Shown: piece after piece, positions 1-18,771 of the stretch | Layout of the letters: every line of letters starts with the position of its first letter | Numbering within the stretch: the stretch's first letter is position 1 | Assembly (NCBI GenBank): GCA_965208675.1 | Contig: OZ242351.1 | Coordinates: 1,856,001-1,920,000, forward strand | From: Candidatus Poribacteria bacterium | Lineage (GTDB): Bacteria; Poribacteria; WGA-4E; PCPOR2b | Direction: 5' to 3' | DNA: 64,000 nucleotides | Position numbers and translations under genes: made by a program | Notes under the pieces: generated by a model | The model's database searches: none | Told to the model about the DNA's origin: nothing | Seen by the model: only the letters and a program-made list of their open reading frames with translations

Positions 1-537
1 ACTCAAGCGGTATTGATCCAGACCATCGTTGTAGGTGATTCGATCCGACACTTCGAGCTCCCCGCCGACAAGGTAATCCCCCATCGCATTGATTCTCTCG
101 ATACTCGGGTGAGCTGGGTGGGTTAAACCGAATGTCCGTGCTGCCCGCTCCTCTTTTGCGTGCCGGTAAAATTCTGGATCGCGTAAGATTGCAACGGCAT
201 GTCCTTCGGTGTTAACGAGCGCCACTGCTTTCTCATTTTTCAAACGGTTATAATTGTCGGTAGAAACGTCGAACGTAATCGGAATGGACATATTCACACG
301 CGTACCGTCGTGCTGGCGTAGGCAGTTAAAATGAAGCGTCTGCAAAAATTCATCTTCCCGCATAAACCCGCGAAGCGGGCTCGCCCATCCTTCGCTGAGG
401 ACATGTATCCACTGGACATCATAATCGGTAACCGGAAGTTTTGGAAGGTCTGTTGCTTCGGCACGTTTTTTTACCCGTTGATTGTCGGGTACGATTAAGT
501 CTACTAGAGCACCGCCGTCTGGTGCAATTAAGGACAT
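1..537 (-). CDS. sat: Sulfate adenylyltransferase (ATP sulfurylase), 5' part; runs off the left edge of the window
   Basis: Not in the ORF track. Manual translation from ATG at 537 (GAGGAG RBS upstream) gives 179 open codons: [16 protein letters not shown]...[30 protein letters not shown]...[10 protein letters not shown]...[22 protein letters not shown], the N-terminal domain of ATP sulfurylase. Confidence 0.93.
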   Translation of the reverse strand, partial: [179 protein letters not shown]

Positions 538-638
538 ATTTTCTCCTCATAATGAGTAAATTTTGGCATGGTAATCAGGTACAATTTGGGACGATTATAT
601 CACAATTGCGAGATTGAAGTCGAGGCTATTAAATTGTG

Positions 639-667
639 TTGACATAAATCGCAGATCCGCATAAAAT
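639..667 (+). promoter_or_regulatory. Sigma70-type promoter for the 733-4283 gene run
   Basis: TTGACA (639-644), 17 nt spacer, TAAAAT (662-667); followed by GGAGG RBS and ATG at 733. Confidence 0.7.
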
Positions 668-732
668 TAGAGATCGTAAATCGTTCCGGCATCTATAGGA
701 GACACCGGTGTAATCGGAGGAGAAAAATTCAC

Positions 733-1608
733 ATGAAGGGACTAAGTTGTAATTCAGGGCTTTTGTGCAAATACAGCACAGAAGAGGCGATTAACATACT
801 CGCAGAACACGGCTATCAAGGTATCGACATAAGTCTTGAAATTGCGCCGCCGTTTTTGCCTATGCCGCCGCCCCACATGAGTCCGGATGACAATGCGAGC
901 ACAAGAAGGCGGGTGCGCCAAGCTGCGGAACAAGCCGGAATCACAATCGTTGCGTTGAACGCCCACAATAACCTGATTCATTCTGTGCCCGAGACTAGAC
1001 AGGCGAATTTAGAGTTCGTTAAGGGCGCGCTGCAACTCGCGTCTGACCTTGAAGTCCAATGTGTGGTTGCCGGCTCCGGAATGAAAGAATTCTACGGATG
1101 GGAAAGCCGATACTGGGAATGGATGGTAGTTGCCTTGCGGGAATTAGTTTCGGAAGCAGACCGTTTGGGAATTTCGCTGGCTGTTGAAGCGGGCGGACTG
1201 CCCGGTATCCTCGTGCACAACTTGATTCGTATGCAACGCCTGCTTGAATACGAGGGCTTAGAGTCGTTGGGCGTGCTGTTCGATCCGAGCCACTACTATA
1301 TCAGAGGAGACGACGTACCCGAAGCCTTCAAGGCGCTGAGCCGCCGCGTAGCACACGTACACGCCAAGGATGCCAAAGGATATGTCGAAGACTACGCATT
1401 CCCGCCGCTCGGGGTGGGCGACATTGATTTCGAGGCATTGGTCTCGGCGATAGTGGAGTGTAACTACACAGGTTACATTTCGATTGAGTATGAGGCGTTT
1501 GCATGGGGCTATGAAATGGAGCCTACACAAGTACTTTCCGAGGGCAAGACTCTATTAGACGGCATTATTTCCGCGGCTGCGAGACAACCGAATCAGCAAT
1601 CACGCTAG
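733..1608 (+). CDS. Sugar phosphate isomerase/epimerase (xylose isomerase-like TIM barrel, AP endonuclease 2 family)
   Basis: Metal-binding motifs LAVE, FDPSH, HVHAKD, G-GDIDF and ISIEYE. Confidence 0.85.
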   Translation: MKGLSCNSGLLCKYSTEEAINILAEHGYQGIDISLEIAPPFLPMPPPHMSPDDNASTRRRVRQAAEQAGITIVALNAHNNLIHSVPETRQANLEFVKGALQLASDLEVQCVVAGSGMKEFYGWESRYWEWMVVALRELVSEADRLGISLAVEAGGLPGILVHNLIRMQRLLEYEGLESLGVLFDPSHYYIRGDDVPEAFKALSRRVAHVHAKDAKGYVEDYAFPPLGVGDIDFEALVSAIVECNYTGYISIEYEAFAWGYEMEPTQVLSEGKTLLDGIISAAARQPNQQSR

Positions 1609-7049: not shown

Positions 7050-7787
7050 TTAATTCCTGGTACTGGGCATGGAATCGAAGCCAAGCAGCCGTTTTAATCT
7101 CGGTGCGGCGCGATTCAGCACCGTGTCGGATGCAAGTTTTGCGTGGTCCTGCTGCGGTTTCATGAACACTCGACAGAAAAAACCGAGCAGTGCAACCCGA
7201 TCGCGATCTGTGCAATTCGCGGAGGATCCGTGCCAAGCAGAACCATTGACAATCAAAACCGAACCTTTCGGGCCGGGTATTTGTACTTCATCGTCATACT
7301 CGACGCCGGGCTCCGGCATCGCTTCAAGCCGGCGGTGGCTGCCGGGGACGCAACTGGTCGCGCCGTTCTCAAGTGTAAAATCGTCGAGAAACCAGACGCT
7401 GTTGGCAACGATGGGGAAGCTCGGACGAGGCGTAGGCATAGCACTCAATGGGTAGTCGATATGGAGACCGCCATCCGGAGCTCCGGGACCGATAACGTTG
7501 ACCGAAAAAGAACTAAGTGTACAGTCTTCACCGATTAGATACTCGATTGGCGCGAGAATGCGCGGATGCTGAATCGCCTTTTCAAACAATTCTCCTTTGT
7601 TGACCAAGTTCCAGACCCGCTGGGCGCAGTCTTCAAAATACATAAAGCCGCATCCAGCTTCTCGCTCCTTTGCAGCAAGAGAAATTGACAGACTTCGTAA
7701 TTGATCAGCCTCGTCATTCGTGATGACATTCTTCAGAAGGACATAGCCGTGTTCATCAAGTTGCGATTTCTCAGAATCTGCCAGCAT
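7050..7787 (-). CDS. PhyH family Fe(II)/2-oxoglutarate dioxygenase
   Basis: HGYV, HID, DFT-ENGAT--VPGSH, WHG, distal Arg. Confidence 0.9.
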   Translation of the reverse strand: MLADSEKSQLDEHGYVLLKNVITNDEADQLRSLSISLAAKEREAGCGFMYFEDCAQRVWNLVNKGELFEKAIQHPRILAPIEYLIGEDCTLSSFSVNVIGPGAPDGGLHIDYPLSAMPTPRPSFPIVANSVWFLDDFTLENGATSCVPGSHRRLEAMPEPGVEYDDEVQIPGPKGSVLIVNGSAWHGSSANCTDRDRVALLGFFCRVFMKPQQDHAKLASDTVLNRAAPRLKRLLGFDSMPSTRN

Positions 7788-7898
7788 TCAATCTCGCTCC
7801 AATAATTTAGATTTTTACCACTGCGTGGTTTCAAACGCCCATGCAATTTGCATATTGACTTTCTTGAGGTTCGATTTCCTGTTATGCTAAATTTCCTT

Positions 7899-8705
7899 TC
7901 AGGGACTGTTATCGGTATTGACCGGACCTTCATCATTGTTGACAAACCGATCCATCGTGTTTTGCGTAAATGGGGAGGTTCGGAAGTCGGCGATCCACGG
8001 TTCACGAAAGTAAGCCTGTTTCTCCCTTGGCAGCCCCACTAACACTTCGCGCGGGACGGTGAGGCGGTGCCAATTTGTTGCAAGGTGGGAATAAGCGTTG
8101 AACACAGCGATACGCGGCGTATCCCGCTGCCAAGGGGGACCAGCGTGACATAGGCTTTCGGTGAAAATAACCGCGCTGCCGGCTGGACACTCGAAACTCC
8201 TCAAAAACTCGCTGCGCTGCCCCGGCTCCAACGACATATGATCCGGATGCATCGGGAAATTTGCCTTATGGCTGCCAATGATGAAATGCGTGGCTCCATC
8301 TTCTTTGCCGATATCCGTCAGTTCGAAAACCACCCGCACCATCCCGGCGTGAATACGCCCATCCTTGACACGATACCCAAAAATAGGATCGGCTTGTATC
8401 GGTCCTCCGCCGTGAAGCGGTCCGGGCGACTCGCCTTTATTGCGCCAGATACAGAAGCTGCTTTCAATCCGAACATCAGGTCCGATGACCTCGTGAATCA
8501 CGTCAATGACTTTCGGATGGTCAATCAGCAGGCTGGAGGGGCCTCCCGGTACGGCTCGATGTGCGGGAGGCAGCGATTCAGGGTCATGTTTGATACGGTC
8601 AATCTGGTCAACGATTGCGTCAATTTCATGCGGAGCCAGAATTGCCGGGCGTATTAAAAAACCGGCTAGGTCAAACCGAAAACGTTCTTCATCGGTCATC
8701 GCCAT
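7899..8705 (-). CDS. PhyH family dioxygenase with an atypical HxG metal motif
   Basis: FDLAGFL, LHGGG, GAT-FIIGSHK, GSAVIFTESLCH. Start ATG 8705 follows AGAGGA (track extends the ORF to 8822). Confidence 0.85.
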   Translation of the reverse strand: MAMTDEERFRFDLAGFLIRPAILAPHEIDAIVDQIDRIKHDPESLPPAHRAVPGGPSSLLIDHPKVIDVIHEVIGPDVRIESSFCIWRNKGESPGPLHGGGPIQADPIFGYRVKDGRIHAGMVRVVFELTDIGKEDGATHFIIGSHKANFPMHPDHMSLEPGQRSEFLRSFECPAGSAVIFTESLCHAGPPWQRDTPRIAVFNAYSHLATNWHRLTVPREVLVGLPREKQAYFREPWIADFRTSPFTQNTMDRFVNNDEGPVNTDNSP

Positions 8706-8852
8706 CGTTCTATCCTCTATTTTTTTAGGCTGTGAGATATGGTATCCGGACCAATTCGCATCGTGAATCTTTTTCTGCACTGCCCTCGTATTGCAGGACA
8801 TGAGTACGGCAACGCGATGCATGGGGCTCCCGCCTATTTTTCAAACAGGCTC

Positions 8853-9782
8853 TTATGCGCCGCTGTGCTTGTCCAGAATTTCAGCGATGCGTTCACAACC
8901 GAAGTGTTGTGCCCATTGCATCGGCGTTGCCTTAAATTTGGGATCGCGGATGGTTACATCAGCGCCGTGCTCTAGAAGAAAGTTTACGGTACCTAACCGC
9001 CGAGACTCTACATCTATCGGATCCGCGGTTGCGCCGAAATTGCCATTGGTTGCCAGCCGATGCAGGATAGTCCACTTACCTTCTCCTAAGTCTGGTACCA
9101 TAGCGTTCACGTCCACGCCCTGTTGAATGAGGTGTTCCGCAACCTCCAGCCGATTATTTAAACATGCGTACAAGAGCGCTTGACTCAGGATATTTTCGGG
9201 TGTACGCTCACACCTATAGACAGTGCCATTGCTCCGTTTCCACTCATGTCCGTATGGATCGGCAAGCACGCCTGCTCCCGGTTTCAGGCTGCCATCCGCT
9301 TTGAAGTAACTCTTGACCCTGTCCAAATCGCCGATACCGGCGGCAAATCGTAAGTCAATATTTGCACGCCATTCCACGAGTAACTCCGAAACCGTTGTGG
9401 ATCCGAAGAATAGCGTATATGCCATCGGTATACCGTCGTTGTCCGTGCCGTTGACTGACGCACCACTCTCAAGCAGCGCGCGCACAACGTGCGGCGCATT
9501 GTAGCTGACGGCGGCGGCGAGCGGATAACCATCAAAGAAGTCAACATCGGCACCGGCATTCAACAGTGCTTTGGTCATCGCATAATCGTTTGTTCCCGCT
9601 GGGATTTTCCCCTCAAAAACTGCCGCCGCGACGTGTACAAGTAATATCGGCTCATTTAACCAGTTCGGATCTGCAATCGGTGTATTCTGGCTGAGCACCG
9701 CTTTTACACGTTCGATATCATTGTCTTCAATTGCTTTGATTATCTCACGCACCAAAGGATTAAGATGTTGGTCGTTTTCCAC
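8853..9782 (-). CDS. Ankyrin repeat protein
   Basis: Repeated ankyrin motifs PL-AA...LL--GA-VN, ALLYAC...LIQQGVDVNA, LLEHGADV...TPMQWA. Confidence 0.88.
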   Translation of the reverse strand: MENDQHLNPLVREIIKAIEDNDIERVKAVLSQNTPIADPNWLNEPILLVHVAAAVFEGKIPAGTNDYAMTKALLNAGADVDFFDGYPLAAAVSYNAPHVVRALLESGASVNGTDNDGIPMAYTLFFGSTTVSELLVEWRANIDLRFAAGIGDLDRVKSYFKADGSLKPGAGVLADPYGHEWKRSNGTVYRCERTPENILSQALLYACLNNRLEVAEHLIQQGVDVNAMVPDLGEGKWTILHRLATNGNFGATADPIDVESRRLGTVNFLLEHGADVTIRDPKFKATPMQWAQHFGCERIAEILDKHSGA

Positions 9783-15414: not shown

Positions 15415-16128
15415 TCATGGGGTATCCACGGATTTCGTTTGTTGCAACACTTGGTGATTAAGAATCCGCTGCCGGTCTACAGATCGCAGGAAGGGTTCTG
15501 CTTTGTGCACGAAATCCTCCAGGGTTTGTTCTATTGTTAAGTTCGTTGTATCTATCGTTATTTTCGCATCAAATAGCGAATTCTTGTAATGTTCTTCAAA
15601 TCGATCCAGCACAATCTCTACATCACTCTCTTTTATCGGGCAATTCGGCTGTGGATTCTGGCGCATACGCTCACGGACGACTTCCGGAGACGCCTTCACG
15701 AGCGTCAAGAGCATTTCCGGTACCAGCGCTTTTACCTCATGTTCAACAAACTGCGCAAGCCACTGGTGACCCGGTTCCCACGATGATTTAAAGTCGCCGT
15801 AATATAGCGGGCCATACACAGCATCGGCGTAATACCAGTTAACCAGAAAGAAATCGTCGCCTCGAAGAAGGTGCGGCTGTAGATGGTAAAGGATTTGGAA
15901 ACGCTGAAATTTCTCAACCAGCGAGGGAACCGTTTTGAGTAGTTCGATGATAGCCTCATTCTCCGCTTGGCTATCGGGTCCTTGGCCGACGTTTGGCAAC
16001 ACGAAGTGGTCGTGCCAATACGGATATGCGATAGGTCCCATCATTTCCTCGTGCCATCTTGTGATGCCCTGGGCAAGCGTCGTCTTGCCTGTATATTCAC
16101 ACCCGATGATGAGAATTTGCATTTGCAA
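15415..16128 (-). CDS. P-loop nucleoside-monophosphate-kinase-fold protein, substrate unknown
   Basis: Walker A GCEYTGKTT, lid-like ASPEVVRERM, C-terminal IDTT----EQ. Confidence 0.7.
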   Translation of the reverse strand: MQMQILIIGCEYTGKTTLAQGITRWHEEMMGPIAYPYWHDHFVLPNVGQGPDSQAENEAIIELLKTVPSLVEKFQRFQILYHLQPHLLRGDDFFLVNWYYADAVYGPLYYGDFKSSWEPGHQWLAQFVEHEVKALVPEMLLTLVKASPEVVRERMRQNPQPNCPIKESDVEIVLDRFEEHYKNSLFDAKITIDTTNLTIEQTLEDFVHKAEPFLRSVDRQRILNHQVLQQTKSVDTP

Positions 16129-16314
16129 TCTCCTTATCCTGATTTAGGGTTACTATACCTCGCCACAAGATTATTTGTCTCTTCAGGGTTTAGTGAGAAA
16201 ATGGAATTAAATTAGAACTTGACACGGTTGGAGCGTTCTCCGTTTCGCGGCATTTTCGATCAAAACCCTCTCCAATTCAAGACCTAAACTCAATTCTGAC
16301 TTCGTCAAATCATA

Positions 16315-18771
16315 TCAGACGTTCTCAACGTCGTTTTGACGCTTTCCGGCGGCTTGGATAATACGGTCAACCAACCCGTTCGACGCGCAGAATGCAGAAA
16401 TGTCCTTGCCCTCCATAGCCGCCGGCAACGCCCAAAGCATCAAGTTCTGAACATAGTGCGCGCCAAACAACCGGTCGCCGTTATCGCCGCGTACGAGATT
16501 CGGCAGGTTCCAGGTAGACAGCGTGTTGATGGTAAGATTATGAATACACCGGCGCGCCAGTTCCAGGCCAAAATCCTTATCCCCCTCGTACATGTAAGTC
16601 ATCGCAAGCATGAACAGCTCGGGCGTGAAATAGGCAGTTGGACCATATCCCAAACCCTGGGAAAGACTTCCGTCTGGACGAGAGAAATTCAATGCGCCAT
16701 AGGGGGTCAACGCCGCGCAAGTGTTTTTGATTGTCTCCAGAGTTTCCTTGACTCGGTCGGATCGAAAAACGCCCGGCAACCCGTGGAATCTTGCCATCCA
16801 CTGCCCGTCAAGTTGATACCCAAATACATCATCTGATTTTCGGCCGGTTTTGGGCTCATTGTAGCTCAAGTAATATGTCCCTGCCCACATCTTGTCTTCC
16901 ATCGATTGACTCCCCTGCTCCAGCCAATCCTTACATTGCCGGGCAAACTCCTCATCGCCCACCTGCTCTGCCAGCCGTTGCGACATTCTCAAATTCGCGA
17001 GGTGGATGCCTCCCACGTGCGATGTCATCCCAAACCATAATACCGCTTCAAACCATTCGAGGTGGTGTCCCGGCGGCTGATTAGGTCCGTACGGATCCAA
17101 ATTTCCACTCGGTACACTGATGATACCGTCGGCGCCGTCCTCTGGCCTGAGGTTCATCGTGTAGATTGTATTTTTCTTAATGGATGGGTAGAACTCTGCA
17201 AGGATTTCCCGGTCGCCCGTGCGAAGCAGGTATCGGTCAACTAAATCAACGTAGCAAGGGCCATTGGTGGTCGTCTGATAGCCCGGTGTTGGCATCGCAA
17301 ACTCGGCGCCCATCGTCGGCTCGTAGCCGCCAATAGCAGCGCCCACAACGCCGCCAAATATCCACGGCGCTGCGCCATTCGCAAACTGGTAGGCTTTGTA
17401 GCCGCGCAGCGTTGAAAGGGCGAGATCGGGGAAAAAGAAAACGAGAGGCGCATTGGCGTAAAAGGTGTCCGGGATGGGCTCAACGGCTGGATTCTCGGTG
17501 ATTCCATCAATCAGCCCAAACAGCCCTTCCTCCGGGTGACACCACGGTCCAATCGGTGGGCGCGCCGCTGCCCACAGGCCGTTGATAGCAAATAAGTGAA
17601 GTATGTTTACCAGCGAATCTTGGAGCCAAATCGGGAGGTTCGCCTCCGTATAGATAACCTCCTGCCACGCTAGGACGCGCCGCAAAAGAGAGTCGTGTTC
17701 GCGGCTTAGAAACTGTGCCGCATCAAGGGCACTCTTGTATCGGGTAGTGTACATGTGGGTGAATGTGTGCGGGCCTTCTCCTATCCACATGGGCGCATAC
17801 CATGCAAGCACAAACCGTACGACTTTTCCCTCTCCCGGCGACAGTTGGTAGCCGACGGAAATCGACCCGCTAAAGTCCGTTTCACCGGGTTCGGGAAGTT
17901 CAGAGCCAATTTTCGCCCAAGCTTTACCGCTGCTCATAGACGGGCTCCGAATCGCCAGTCCACCGCCGGTTTCGATTTCCGCCTCTCCAACTACACCGAG
18001 TGCGTAGCCGATTTCTGGAACCTTTTCCGATGTAACAACCAACCCGGTAAATTCTCCGTGTACGGTTTGCCGCTCCGCCTTCACCGGTTCCGGCGCAAGT
18101 GAAATCCACGTATGGCCGTACGGCATCGGCGCTTTTTCACGCGGGCTGTGCGCTTCAATCTGGGCTTCAGCCTGGGTCGGTCCGGGAAAACTGAAAGCCA
18201 ATCGCCCTTCCTGCGCCGTGTCCGTCACATTGCGGAGATGTACTTCAAACACGATTCCGGGAGTGTTGGTGGTGCCAGAGTCTCCGGGGAGAAACGGCGC
18301 CCAGGCGCGCAGTCCAACATTGACAGGCGATCCCGGCATCTCGTATTCCAGGTCCGCTACCGGATAATGGCCCCAATAATGAATTTCGCGCGGCGTCTGG
18401 ATGCCAAACCACATGTAACCGCCGTACGCTTCCCGCGGATCGCTGAGCAACCAAACCTGTTCGCCTACCGTCATACCAAGAAACGGCAGCGCCAGCGGAC
18501 CGCCTTCAGGACAGATGGAGTTGAAAATCGTGCAGTATCCGAAGGTTGCATCAGTGTTCAAATCGAGTCGCCCTGTGTCAATCCCGCCTAAAGGCATTCC
18601 GTTCTCGATTCGCTGTTTGCGTCTGTATATCACACCGCATGCAGGTTCGCTAAATCCGTCCGCCGGGAATTGCGACCATTCAAGCACCGGTGCATCTGTA
18701 GAAAAAAGCCTCCGGTTATTCAAATGTCCGGAATCTCCTTCGTGCAAACCTGTTATTGCAGTCGTGCTCAC
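16315..18771 (-). CDS. Glycoside hydrolase family 116 (GBA2/glucosylceramidase-like)
   Basis: GMPLGGI-TG, YWGHYPVA, FVLAWYAP, HMY---, W-G-YY, QLDGQW, Y---L-LW. Confidence 0.85.
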   Translation of the reverse strand: MSTTAITGLHEGDSGHLNNRRLFSTDAPVLEWSQFPADGFSEPACGVIYRRKQRIENGMPLGGIDTGRLDLNTDATFGYCTIFNSICPEGGPLALPFLGMTVGEQVWLLSDPREAYGGYMWFGIQTPREIHYWGHYPVADLEYEMPGSPVNVGLRAWAPFLPGDSGTTNTPGIVFEVHLRNVTDTAQEGRLAFSFPGPTQAEAQIEAHSPREKAPMPYGHTWISLAPEPVKAERQTVHGEFTGLVVTSEKVPEIGYALGVVGEAEIETGGGLAIRSPSMSSGKAWAKIGSELPEPGETDFSGSISVGYQLSPGEGKVVRFVLAWYAPMWIGEGPHTFTHMYTTRYKSALDAAQFLSREHDSLLRRVLAWQEVIYTEANLPIWLQDSLVNILHLFAINGLWAAARPPIGPWCHPEEGLFGLIDGITENPAVEPIPDTFYANAPLVFFFPDLALSTLRGYKAYQFANGAAPWIFGGVVGAAIGGYEPTMGAEFAMPTPGYQTTTNGPCYVDLVDRYLLRTGDREILAEFYPSIKKNTIYTMNLRPEDGADGIISVPSGNLDPYGPNQPPGHHLEWFEAVLWFGMTSHVGGIHLANLRMSQRLAEQVGDEEFARQCKDWLEQGSQSMEDKMWAGTYYLSYNEPKTGRKSDDVFGYQLDGQWMARFHGLPGVFRSDRVKETLETIKNTCAALTPYGALNFSRPDGSLSQGLGYGPTAYFTPELFMLAMTYMYEGDKDFGLELARRCIHNLTINTLSTWNLPNLVRGDNGDRLFGAHYVQNLMLWALPAAMEGKDISAFCASNGLVDRIIQAAGKRQNDVENV

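Follow-up and report, generated by a model that had tools for sequence, protein, structure and literature searches.

An ATP sulfurylase of the plant/animal type encoded by Poribacteria and its possible eukaryotic origin

At one edge of a 64,000-nucleotide stretch of the chromosome of a sponge-associated Candidatus Poribacteria bacterium (the window, G000:C1:1856001-1920000) lies a gene for a predicted ATP sulfurylase (ATPS) of the eukaryote (plant/animal) type. The enzyme, here called P0001, belongs to the eukaryotic clade by descent, but it is encoded by a prokaryote and carries neither a transit peptide nor an N-terminal fusion to adenosine 5'-phosphosulfate (APS) kinase. As far as we found, it represents the first prokaryotic clade attached to the eukaryotic ATPS branch, a known family in an unexpected host. 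The explanation that we favour overall, with moderate confidence, is that an ATPS of a eukaryotic lineage was acquired by Poribacteria, was then inherited vertically and displaced the ordinary bacterial sulfate adenylyltransferase (Sat); the direction of the transfer is not safe.

In the phylogeny of Patron et al. 2008 (PMC2275785), streptophyte ATPS isoforms of the plastid belong to a eukaryote-only clade, and the enzyme of animals and choanozoans is most closely related to those of plants and stramenopiles. The same text proposes that marine Synechococcus and Prochlorococcus obtained their ATPS from a eukaryote, a precedent for a bacterial ATPS that branches with eukaryotes and away from the enzymes of its relatives; that case differs from the present one in that it concerns another ATPS clade, the green-algal/plastid type, which is sister to the fungal type. 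For Prioretti et al. 2014 (PMC4220642), the phylogeny of ATPS is unresolved. Full-text searches of a partial literature returned no report of a eukaryote-type ATPS in Poribacteria, which is not proof of novelty.

The gene and its product

The gene starts inside the window and continues beyond its edge:

Window 1..537, minus strand: ATP sulfurylase, first 179 codons, for the PUA-like domain and the first part of the catalytic domain (ORF list, Pfam)
G000:C1:1855311-1856000, minus strand, just beyond the window: ATP sulfurylase, remaining 229 codons (full ORF)
Window 543..548, minus strand: Shine-Dalgarno-like GAGGAG, 5 nt 5' of the ATG at 537-535 (ctcctc on the plus strand; sequence reading)

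The open reading frame (ORF) in the window opens with an ATG, encodes 179 amino acids and is still open at the window edge; this fragment by itself matches PUA_2 (PF14306) at 2.2e-46, far beyond chance. With the adjoining sequence it forms an intact, uninterrupted ORF of 408 amino acids (G000:C1:1855311-1856537, minus strand), in which Pfam recognizes PUA_2 at residues 4-165 (1.4e-46) and ATP-sulfurylase (PF01747) at residues 174-403 (3.5e-65). P0001 passes the cut-off of TIGR00339, 'sulfate adenylyltransferase' (373.3 bits, cut-off 322.95), and stays below those of the ordinary bacterial Sat model NF003166/PRK04149 (218 bits against 387) and of the bifunctional Sat/APS kinase model NF004040 (178.9 bits against 669). 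A Pfam search of the full protein found no APS-kinase domain (PF01583).

The first residues of the protein, MSLIAPDGG, already belong to the conserved core, and a transit peptide is absent. On the minus strand the sequence immediately 5' of the start codon reads ...TTATGAGGAGAAAAT-ATG (reverse complement of window 538-560). Both QxRNPxHxxH and GRD, which we take to be the active-site motifs for binding of ATP and sulfate, are present as Q199-L-R-N-P-I-H-N-G-H208 and G301-R-D303. The corresponding blocks FQLRNPIHNGH (198-208) and VGRDPAG (300-306) are invariant in 13/13 bacterial copies and align with the soybean and human motifs. Plant and human ATPS are homodimeric; the fungal enzyme and some bacterial ones are hexamers.

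Likeness to plant and animal enzymes

Among proteins of known structure, the best match of P0001 is soybean ATPS (4MAF), which aligns end to end (residues 3-407 against 2-401, E = 1.2e-166), followed by human PAPSS2 and PAPSS1 over residues 11-408 (E = 6e-152 to 1.5e-148; 7e-150 for PAPSS1). The other 12 of the 16 matching PDB sequences, from Aquifex, yeast, Penicillium, Methanothermococcus, Allochromatium, a Riftia symbiont, Thermus and Thiobacillus, score 3.5e-43 or worse. A search of a 5.8-billion-protein collection gave 3381 matches, and the best 120 of these include 22 proteins of 401-419 amino acids that are 66-97% identical to P0001; 21 of the 22 are encoded on metagenomic or unnamed contigs and one, P0009, on a 5.87-Mb record. 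Eukaryotes appear among the same 120 matches at 61-67% identity (the glaucophyte Gloeochaete, algal transcripts, Chara, liverworts and many land plants). Identity is 62-65% to land-plant proteins, 62-67% to plants and glaucophytes together, and 55% to P0124, a nematode representative of PAPSS and the sole animal protein for which it was measured. With the ordinary Sat of its poribacterial relatives, P0001 shares no more than 27-28% identity. The protein search also returned P0007, a 595-residue 'hypothetical protein' of Cocos nucifera, whose 781 bits derive from two partial plant ATPS copies that lie in tandem in one gene model (residues 4-277 and 297-589); it is a duplication or annotation artefact in a plant record and not a close relative.

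The comparison with plant ATPS (soybean 4MAF, Arabidopsis APS1-4) extends to the domain layout, as both are two-domain enzymes that stand alone, unfused to APS kinase, and the blocks FQLRNPxHNGH, HPLGGxTKxDDVP and VGRDPAG are identical. The plant proteins differ in carrying 40-150 additional N-terminal residues where P0001 lacks a plastid transit peptide, and the gene for P0001 sits in a bacterial chromosome behind a Shine-Dalgarno box. Two further differences concern the sequence: P0001 and most bacterial copies have a 6-residue insert (ERLDSGGKSAP region, residues 311-321) that is found in neither plants nor animals, and the motif GFMSEKAW of P0001 (GFMGExAW in most bacterial copies) corresponds to GFMCPGGW in plants. 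The metazoan synthases of 3'-phosphoadenosine 5'-phosphosulfate (PAPS; human PAPSS1/2, structures 1X6V, 2QJF and 7FH3) belong to the same family clade and share QLRNPxHNGH; they possess an N-terminal APS-kinase domain, whereas the poribacterial APS kinase is a separate gene of bacterial type, 0.67 Mb away.

Ordinary Sat, as encoded by Poribacteria of genera g5, g7, g8 and g11 and represented by the Thermus, Aquifex and Allochromatium structures, has the same Pfam domains, presumably catalyzes the same reaction and is likewise the single sulfate-activating gene of its genome. Its motifs, however, are FQTRNPxHRAH and GRDHAG, and it lacks the 5-residue insert that precedes HPLGG. The poribacterial version starts with MIKPHGSD... 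and reads ...GSGYFNPLTGYM... where P0001 has a different 14-residue block. P0001 itself displays the GWAxPLxGFMRE block, GRDPAG and the insert before HPLGG, states that are specific to the eukaryote-type clade in the 25 displayed rows of our 64-row alignment, from which they were derived independently of any published definition.

The initial annotation of the window, made from its letters alone, had called this gene an ATPS of the plant/animal type with a bacterial ribosome-binding site and no introns. These statements stand, in view of the soybean and human matches, the GAGGAG box and the uninterrupted 408-residue frame. All five strings on which it relied occur in the translation (LIAPDGG at residues 3-9, AILRDPEFY at 116-124, and those at 42-71, 128-137 and 169-178), and the contrast that it drew with typical bacterial Sat holds in outline, given the MIKPHGSD... 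start and the deviating internal block of the latter.

The locus is part of poribacterial chromosomes

A eukaryote-like protein in a bacterial assembly calls to mind an artefact, in which a piece of algal or plant DNA ended up in the bacterial genome through misassembly or misbinning. Only the unusual affinity of the protein speaks for this, and we consider it so improbable as to be negligible. The gene is located inside a genome that consists of one contig of 4,892,038 bp (96.4% complete, 1.14% contaminated), has no introns and no transit peptide, and is preceded by a Shine-Dalgarno box. The three closest genomic relatives of P0001 (96, 86 and 85% identity) are encoded on complete chromosomes of Candidatus Poribacteria, a group that NCBI ranks as a candidate phylum, and the neighbours on both sides are the same in 3/3 of these sister genomes: a PHP-family hydrolase on one side (82-95% identity) and, on the other, a xylose-isomerase-like TIM-barrel protein, a Zn-dependent alcohol dehydrogenase and a PhyH-family dioxygenase (89-99% identity). 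More distant Poribacteria have the gene too, on long contigs on which the remaining genes share 55-79% identity with this genome.

Sequencing runs contain the same arrangement. A 4-kb stretch around the ATPS gene is present in 23 listed runs from 14 studies, mostly labelled 'sponge metagenome'; the listing for the locus contains no RNA run. We compared the Logan contigs of four runs, of which X1 covers all of it at near identity and could be what the assembly was made from, so that it was excluded from the independent count; X5, X6 and X8 belong to three studies other than that of X1. X5 record 2 and X6 record 10 span the junction between the PHP-family gene and the ATPS gene, and X6 record 13 and X8 record 23 span the one that runs from the ATPS gene through the intergenic region into the TIM-barrel gene; this is bridging by contigs and not read depth. 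Synteny in three sister genomes together with independent contigs across both junctions rules out a chimera or contaminant, a concern that the initial annotation had raised for this end of the window.

The base composition of the gene lies within the range of the genome. Its GC content is 54.7%, compared with 50.6 +/- 3.2% for 1802 long ORFs (91st percentile), and GC at third codon positions (GC3) is 58.1% (80th percentile). We had considered composition as a possible mark of recent transfer and discarded it, since neither value is anomalous and the measure is uninformative.

Phylogenetic position

The phylogeny was inferred by maximum likelihood with IQ-TREE (LG+C20+F+G4, posterior mean site frequencies) from 64 rows, hand-picked out of more than 500 proteins, and 416 columns. 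The rows comprise 18 bacterial sequences, 3 of the glaucophyte group, 7 streptophytes, 9 animals, 2 near animals, 13 on the side of the stramenopiles, alveolates and Rhizaria (SAR; 7 of them named) and 12 ordinary Sat, 3 of these poribacterial. The named SAR rows, from oomycetes, chlorarachniophytes and ochrophytes, are triple fusions of APS kinase, ATPS and pyrophosphatase. Of the 34 rows treated as eukaryotic, 26 carry a name from their source and 8 were assigned by architecture or position; two of the 26 are known by transcript or gene-model identifiers only and were assigned to the glaucophyte group, in part by their place in the tree. A partial match, P0187, had been left out of the first tree, and the 64-row set further omits the long-branch sequences P0131, P0133 and P0139, the unnamed P0126, P0134 and P0141, plant and poribacterial rows that were redundant, and three distant outgroups, while P0128 was retained as Amorphochlora.

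Eukaryote-type ATPS and ordinary Sat are split with 100/100 support by a branch about 3.4 substitutions per site long, and the split recurs in all quick trees. The poribacterial enzymes fall on the eukaryote-type side of this split, not among ordinary bacterial Sat. The 18 bacterial rows together make up a single clade (99/94) with the order (P0019/P0022-P0024, (f9, (f4, (g3, g1)))), the first group being four sequences and the letters denoting families and genera. With ordinary Sat as the outgroup, SAR (96/93) is basal, streptophytes follow, and glaucophytes, animals (with two unnamed rows) and bacteria make up the remaining, weakly supported group (90/75). The 9 sampled animals form a clade of their own (100/99) without bacteria.

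Quick trees that include SAR place the bacteria similarly, with varying neighbours. In a tree of 81 rows SAR is again basal, and bacteria, streptophytes, glaucophytes and the animal group emerge from an unresolved fork; with a reduced outgroup the bacteria are sister to glaucophytes at 61. In every tree that includes SAR (5/5), the bacteria are nested among the non-SAR eukaryotes. The signature sites agree with this order: at T200L, within the QxRNP motif, and at F298Y, the outgroup and SAR share one state, and plants, glaucophytes, animals and bacteria share another, whereas the signature columns contain 0 sites that unite bacteria and outgroup against all eukaryotes.

An N-terminus of plant-like and a distal part of animal-like character had been proposed from the first reading of the sequence. 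This proposal did not survive, as trees of residues 1-170 and 171-408 show no supported conflict. In the former the bacteria are sister to glaucophytes plus animals, in the latter to glaucophytes (79). The plant-like start LIxPDGG, moreover, lies near the outgroup state xIxPHGG and is read as a retained ancestral state. We rejected a mosaic gene, since the quick trees of both halves keep a monophyletic bacterial clade (88 and 90) in the same region of the tree; they differ solely on branches with support of 79 to 91, and quick trees are less reliable with long rows.

Distribution and inheritance within the phylum

Each of 41 genomes of the same order contains one Sat match to P0001, of the eukaryote type in 10 (69-100% identity, E <= 7e-192) and ordinary in 31 (28-33%). 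Across the phylum, 12 of 176 genomes carry the eukaryote type, namely 4/4 of genus g1, including the genome of the window, 1/1 of g3, 6/7 of family f4 and one genome of another order (f9/g28). A single PF01747 match was found in the genome of the window, in two carriers outside the 41 and in three further genomes. The two types of Sat are thus mutually exclusive, which implies that the eukaryote type took the place of the ordinary one. The ordinary poribacterial rows, for their part, form a tight clade in the 64-row tree.

The gene is maintained. None of the 12 eukaryote-type copies has an internal stop, and dN/dS within the genus is 0.10-0.13. Identity to P0001 declines from 96, 86 and 85% within g1 to 76% in g3, 68-72% in f4 and 66% in f9. 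The best-matching copy of DnaK gives, in the same order, 96, 91 and 90% within g1 and 74% in f4, a rough yardstick, as these genomes have two DnaK paralogues and the better match was taken. (The two DnaK genes, at G000:C1:1144302-1146290 and 15725-17653, are 71% identical to each other, and the sampled genomes of family f1 likewise have two.) On long metagenome contigs of the f4 type, the other well-matching genes are mostly 55-79% identical, a few far less, compared with 67-68% for the ATPS. Because the branching of the bacterial rows follows the taxonomic ranks and their identities parallel those of DnaK, we find nothing that suggests a recent exchange; the gene seems to be old and to have passed down vertically in Poribacteria.

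A metagenome scan retained 80 loci, of which 9 were checked for ORFs and neighbours. Six of the 9 (L031-L033, L064, L066 and L093) are Poribacteria of the f4 type by their ATPS and, on the longer contigs, also by their neighbours. The other 74 loci are at most 73% identical to P0001, mostly under 62%, and many are partial or interrupted; no contig of the basal subclade P0019/P0022-24 was found among the metagenome loci. One locus, L062, a 128-kb metagenome contig with about half its length in long ORFs, encodes a 588-residue ATPS-like protein at 7419-9185 with 48% identity, probably a eukaryotic or otherwise divergent member; it is outside the tree. Scanning genome contigs with P0001 returned 3 close poribacterial loci, a scan that reaches near relatives only. 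A protein atlas gave generic ATP-sulfurylase clusters from mixed bacteria, which do not bear on the clade. The best 120 of the 3381 protein matches, this one scan of close relatives' genomes and the 80 metagenome loci revealed no other bacterial group with the eukaryote type, Poribacteria being the only group searched genome by genome.

A shared operon position next to a PHP-family hydrolase

The gene that follows the ATPS gene lies outside the window:

G000:C1:1854318-1855268 = L028:9318-10268, minus strand: PHP-family (CehA/McbA-like) metallohydrolase, 316 amino acids (NCBIfam)

It is located directly 3' of the ATPS gene on the same strand, 42 nt apart. The protein scores 110 bits with the NCBIfam CehA/McbA model (cut-off 80) and remains below the cut-off of Pfam PHP (23.3 against 26.4). 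Its similarity to 3',5'-nucleoside bisphosphate phosphatase is confined to the N-terminus (36 bits against a cut-off of 400), and its PDB matches are weak. The pair of ATPS and hydrolase genes occurs in the genome of the window, in 3/3 g1 sisters, at 2/2 loci examined in genus g10 of f4 (63% identity) and on 2 metagenome contigs; a third g10 genome, G069, has no eukaryote-type match.

Orthologues or paralogues of the hydrolase are present in 166 of 176 genomes of the phylum (E <= 1e-20), including orthologues of 72-76% identity in two genera that lack the eukaryote-type ATPS. In one of these genomes, G009 of genus g7, an ordinary Sat (81% identical to that of g5) lies directly 5' of a 72%-identical orthologue in the same orientation. 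Both types of Sat can therefore fill the same slot, which fits either displacement in place or differential loss from an ancestral tandem, and the shared slot argues that the two are functionally interchangeable. One might guess that the hydrolase has a role in sulfate activation, for example in the hydrolysis of pyrophosphate (PPi) or of 3'-phosphoadenosine 5'-phosphate (pAp). The genome has three Inositol_P (CysQ-like) genes, so a role of the hydrolase as pAp phosphatase is not required.

Six genes on the same strand lie 3' of the hydrolase gene (L028:464-8736, G000:C1:1845464-1853736, beyond the window). Two have no Pfam match, and the others encode a C-5 cytosine DNA methylase, an HATPase_c_3 protein, a Z1-domain/ResIII protein and a DUF4420 (PD-(D/E)XK) protein, a set reminiscent of a restriction-modification or defence island. 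In the sister chromosomes (L005-L007, three in all), the 5 kb beyond the hydrolase gene contain no match to any of the six, and the cluster therefore appears strain-specific.

Origin of the gene

Two readings of the eukaryote-like sequence had been offered at the outset, transfer from a eukaryote or a bacterial sister lineage relevant to the origin of the eukaryotic enzyme, and the evidence ends at this same pair, with transfer favoured. That the gene passed from a eukaryote to a bacterium, whoever the donor, a sponge host included, strikes us as rather probable. The ancestor of one poribacterial class would have acquired the gene once, from a donor with an unfused, non-SAR form of ATPS near the radiation of glaucophytes, plants and animals and not from the PAPS synthase of a sponge host. 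It would then have been inherited vertically, and the ordinary Sat would have been displaced in those lineages that keep the eukaryote type, the acquired gene taking over, at least in part, its operon position 5' of the PHP-family hydrolase gene. Direction and age of the transfer, like the displacement at the same locus, are what we infer from these comparisons. The nesting of the bacteria among eukaryotes whenever SAR is included is what favours an ancient eukaryote-to-bacterium transfer.

The poribacterial enzymes could instead be the closest surviving prokaryotic relatives of the ATPS of the last eukaryotic common ancestor (LECA), with no movement from eukaryote to bacterium; a Poribacteria-like bacterium would have donated the gene to stem eukaryotes, or both would have inherited it from unsampled bacteria. 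We regard these variants, taken jointly, as a doubtful but serious alternative, and the narrower claim that the poribacterial enzymes are the sole known prokaryotic sister, or the paraphyletic stem, of the LECA enzyme, with a Poribacteria-like bacterium related to the Planctomycetes, Verrucomicrobia and Chlamydiae (PVC) as source, as slightly less probable again. Several results that weigh against the transfer are at the same time the strength of this alternative. The approximately unbiased (AU) test does not reject a tree in which the 34 eukaryote rows are monophyletic with bacteria as their sister (delta lnL 5.0, p 0.306). Removal of the 13 SAR rows from a quick tree moves the root inside the bacteria and leaves the eukaryotes monophyletic (92) within paraphyletic bacteria; since the outgroup joined the bacterial rows despite the longer metazoan branch, simple long-branch attraction is no explanation for that root. 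SAR, on the other hand, has the longest ingroup branch, so that its basal position may partly be due to such attraction. The bacterial proteins also keep outgroup-like N-terminal states (xIxP[DH]GG). The trees in the available parts of the published work (PMC2275785, PMC4220642) contain no prokaryote in this clade, and the origin of the clade is described there as unresolved. Further weight against the transfer comes from the dependence of its direction on a root that is attached through the branch of about 3.4 substitutions per site, from the limited support (93/90 and 90/75) of the branches that put the bacterial clade among eukaryotes, and from the lack of a pinned donor lineage, glaucophyte sisterhood having support of 61-79. 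Vertical descent from a class ancestor demands many independent losses, as 164 of 176 genomes lack the gene, and the argument from a shared locus consists of one 5.7-kb contig of one metagenome-assembled genome (G009). Sponges, choanoflagellates and red algae are absent from the sampling, as is any row with a fungal name, and the basal four of the bacterial clade (P0019, P0022-P0024; P0023 lies on a 105.8-kb contig) have no assigned organism.

A sister lineage has to contend, in turn, with the nesting in 5/5 SAR-including trees and with signature sites that stand 2 to 0 for nesting. It must accommodate the occurrence of the type in merely 12 of 176 genomes of a phylum in which ordinary Sat is usual, and its failure to surface in any other bacterial group in the three surveys above. 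The stem that separates the bacterial clade from the eukaryote groups is short (0.10) relative to the depth of the eukaryote radiation, identity to plants is higher for the bacterial proteins (62-65%) than for SAR (about 50%), and the very long stem to ordinary Sat would have to arise in a bacterial lineage without other descendants. A donor closer at hand would be the sponge host, from whose bifunctional PAPS synthase a symbiont might have captured the sulfurylase half. The locus occurs in 'sponge metagenome' runs of at least 12 studies, which indicates contact between host and symbiont, and similarity to the sulfurylase domain of animal PAPSS is strong. We nevertheless judge this donor very unlikely: the clade of the nine sampled animals (100/99) excludes the bacteria, an enforced exclusive clade of bacteria and metazoa costs 18.1 lnL and is marginally rejected (AU p 0.042), identity to plants and glaucophytes (62-67%) exceeds that to the nematode protein P0124 (55%), and P0001 retains no trace of an APS-kinase domain. 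This test was made without a sponge sequence and is compatible with a very early donor on the sponge stem.

Role in sulfate assimilation

P0001 would catalyze the conversion of ATP and sulfate to APS and PPi as the only ATP sulfurylase of the cell, an activity to which homology, purifying selection and its status as the sole candidate gene beside CysC, CysH, sulfite reductase and CysK all point. The bacterial-type APS kinase CysC is encoded separately at G000:C1:1188154-1188774 (NF003013, 303 bits), the gene for the phosphoadenylyl-sulfate reductase CysH (NF002537, 217 bits against a cut-off of 154) adjoins that for cysteine synthase A (CysK), and a protein of the sulfite/nitrite reductase type (NIR_SIR) is present in the genome. 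No CysD was found in the genome, where the second PF01507 match fits just uncharacterized PP-loop models. The presence of CysC, CysH, sulfite reductase and CysK suggests that the enzyme feeds assimilatory sulfate reduction, in which APS from P0001 would pass via CysC, CysH and sulfite reductase to CysK. The genome has one Sulfotransfer_3 match, and some PAPS may be directed to sulfation.

Sequences upstream of the gene

The divergent intergenic region that separates the ATPS gene from the xylose-isomerase-like gene (window 733-1608, plus strand) holds a putative promoter:

Window 594..623 (L028 11623..11594), minus strand: sigma-70-like promoter match, TCGACT, 18-nt spacer, TG-TATAAT (10/12 consensus positions)

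The match is a weak pointer, the scan having returned 3 sites with 2.5 expected by chance. An 82-nt segment of the same region (window 591-672) matches G000:C1:1581888-1581973 at 73% (E 9e-5) and may be a shared regulatory or repeat element. The start of the xylose-isomerase-like gene (window 720-898) has 70-73% DNA identity to G000:C1:681166-681330 and 676453-676618, presumably paralogous sugar-phosphate isomerase or epimerase genes.

Implications

The plant/animal/stramenopile branch of ATPS has been published, in the available parts of PMC2275785 and PMC4220642, as purely eukaryotic and of unresolved origin, and the bacterial clade described here offers a handle on that origin. If the clade is nested, it would represent a rare and clean transfer of a core metabolic enzyme from a eukaryote to a bacterium, in which the gene was fixed, displaced its native homologue and was long inherited in an animal-dwelling lineage. 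If it is sister, it would be the nearest prokaryotic relative of the LECA enzyme; and should Poribacteria-like (PVC-related) bacteria have been the source, the eukaryotic enzyme of sulfate activation would have come from them, a question open since the 2008 phylogeny. The conserved pairing of either type of Sat with the PHP-family hydrolase suggests a missing accessory step of sulfate activation in the phylum. Either way, Poribacteria provide a natural experiment in which two versions of an enzyme that are 27% identical have been exchanged in similar genomes, once in the same operon slot, and this exchange could reveal what is distinctive in the kinetics, regulation or oligomeric state of the eukaryotic enzyme.

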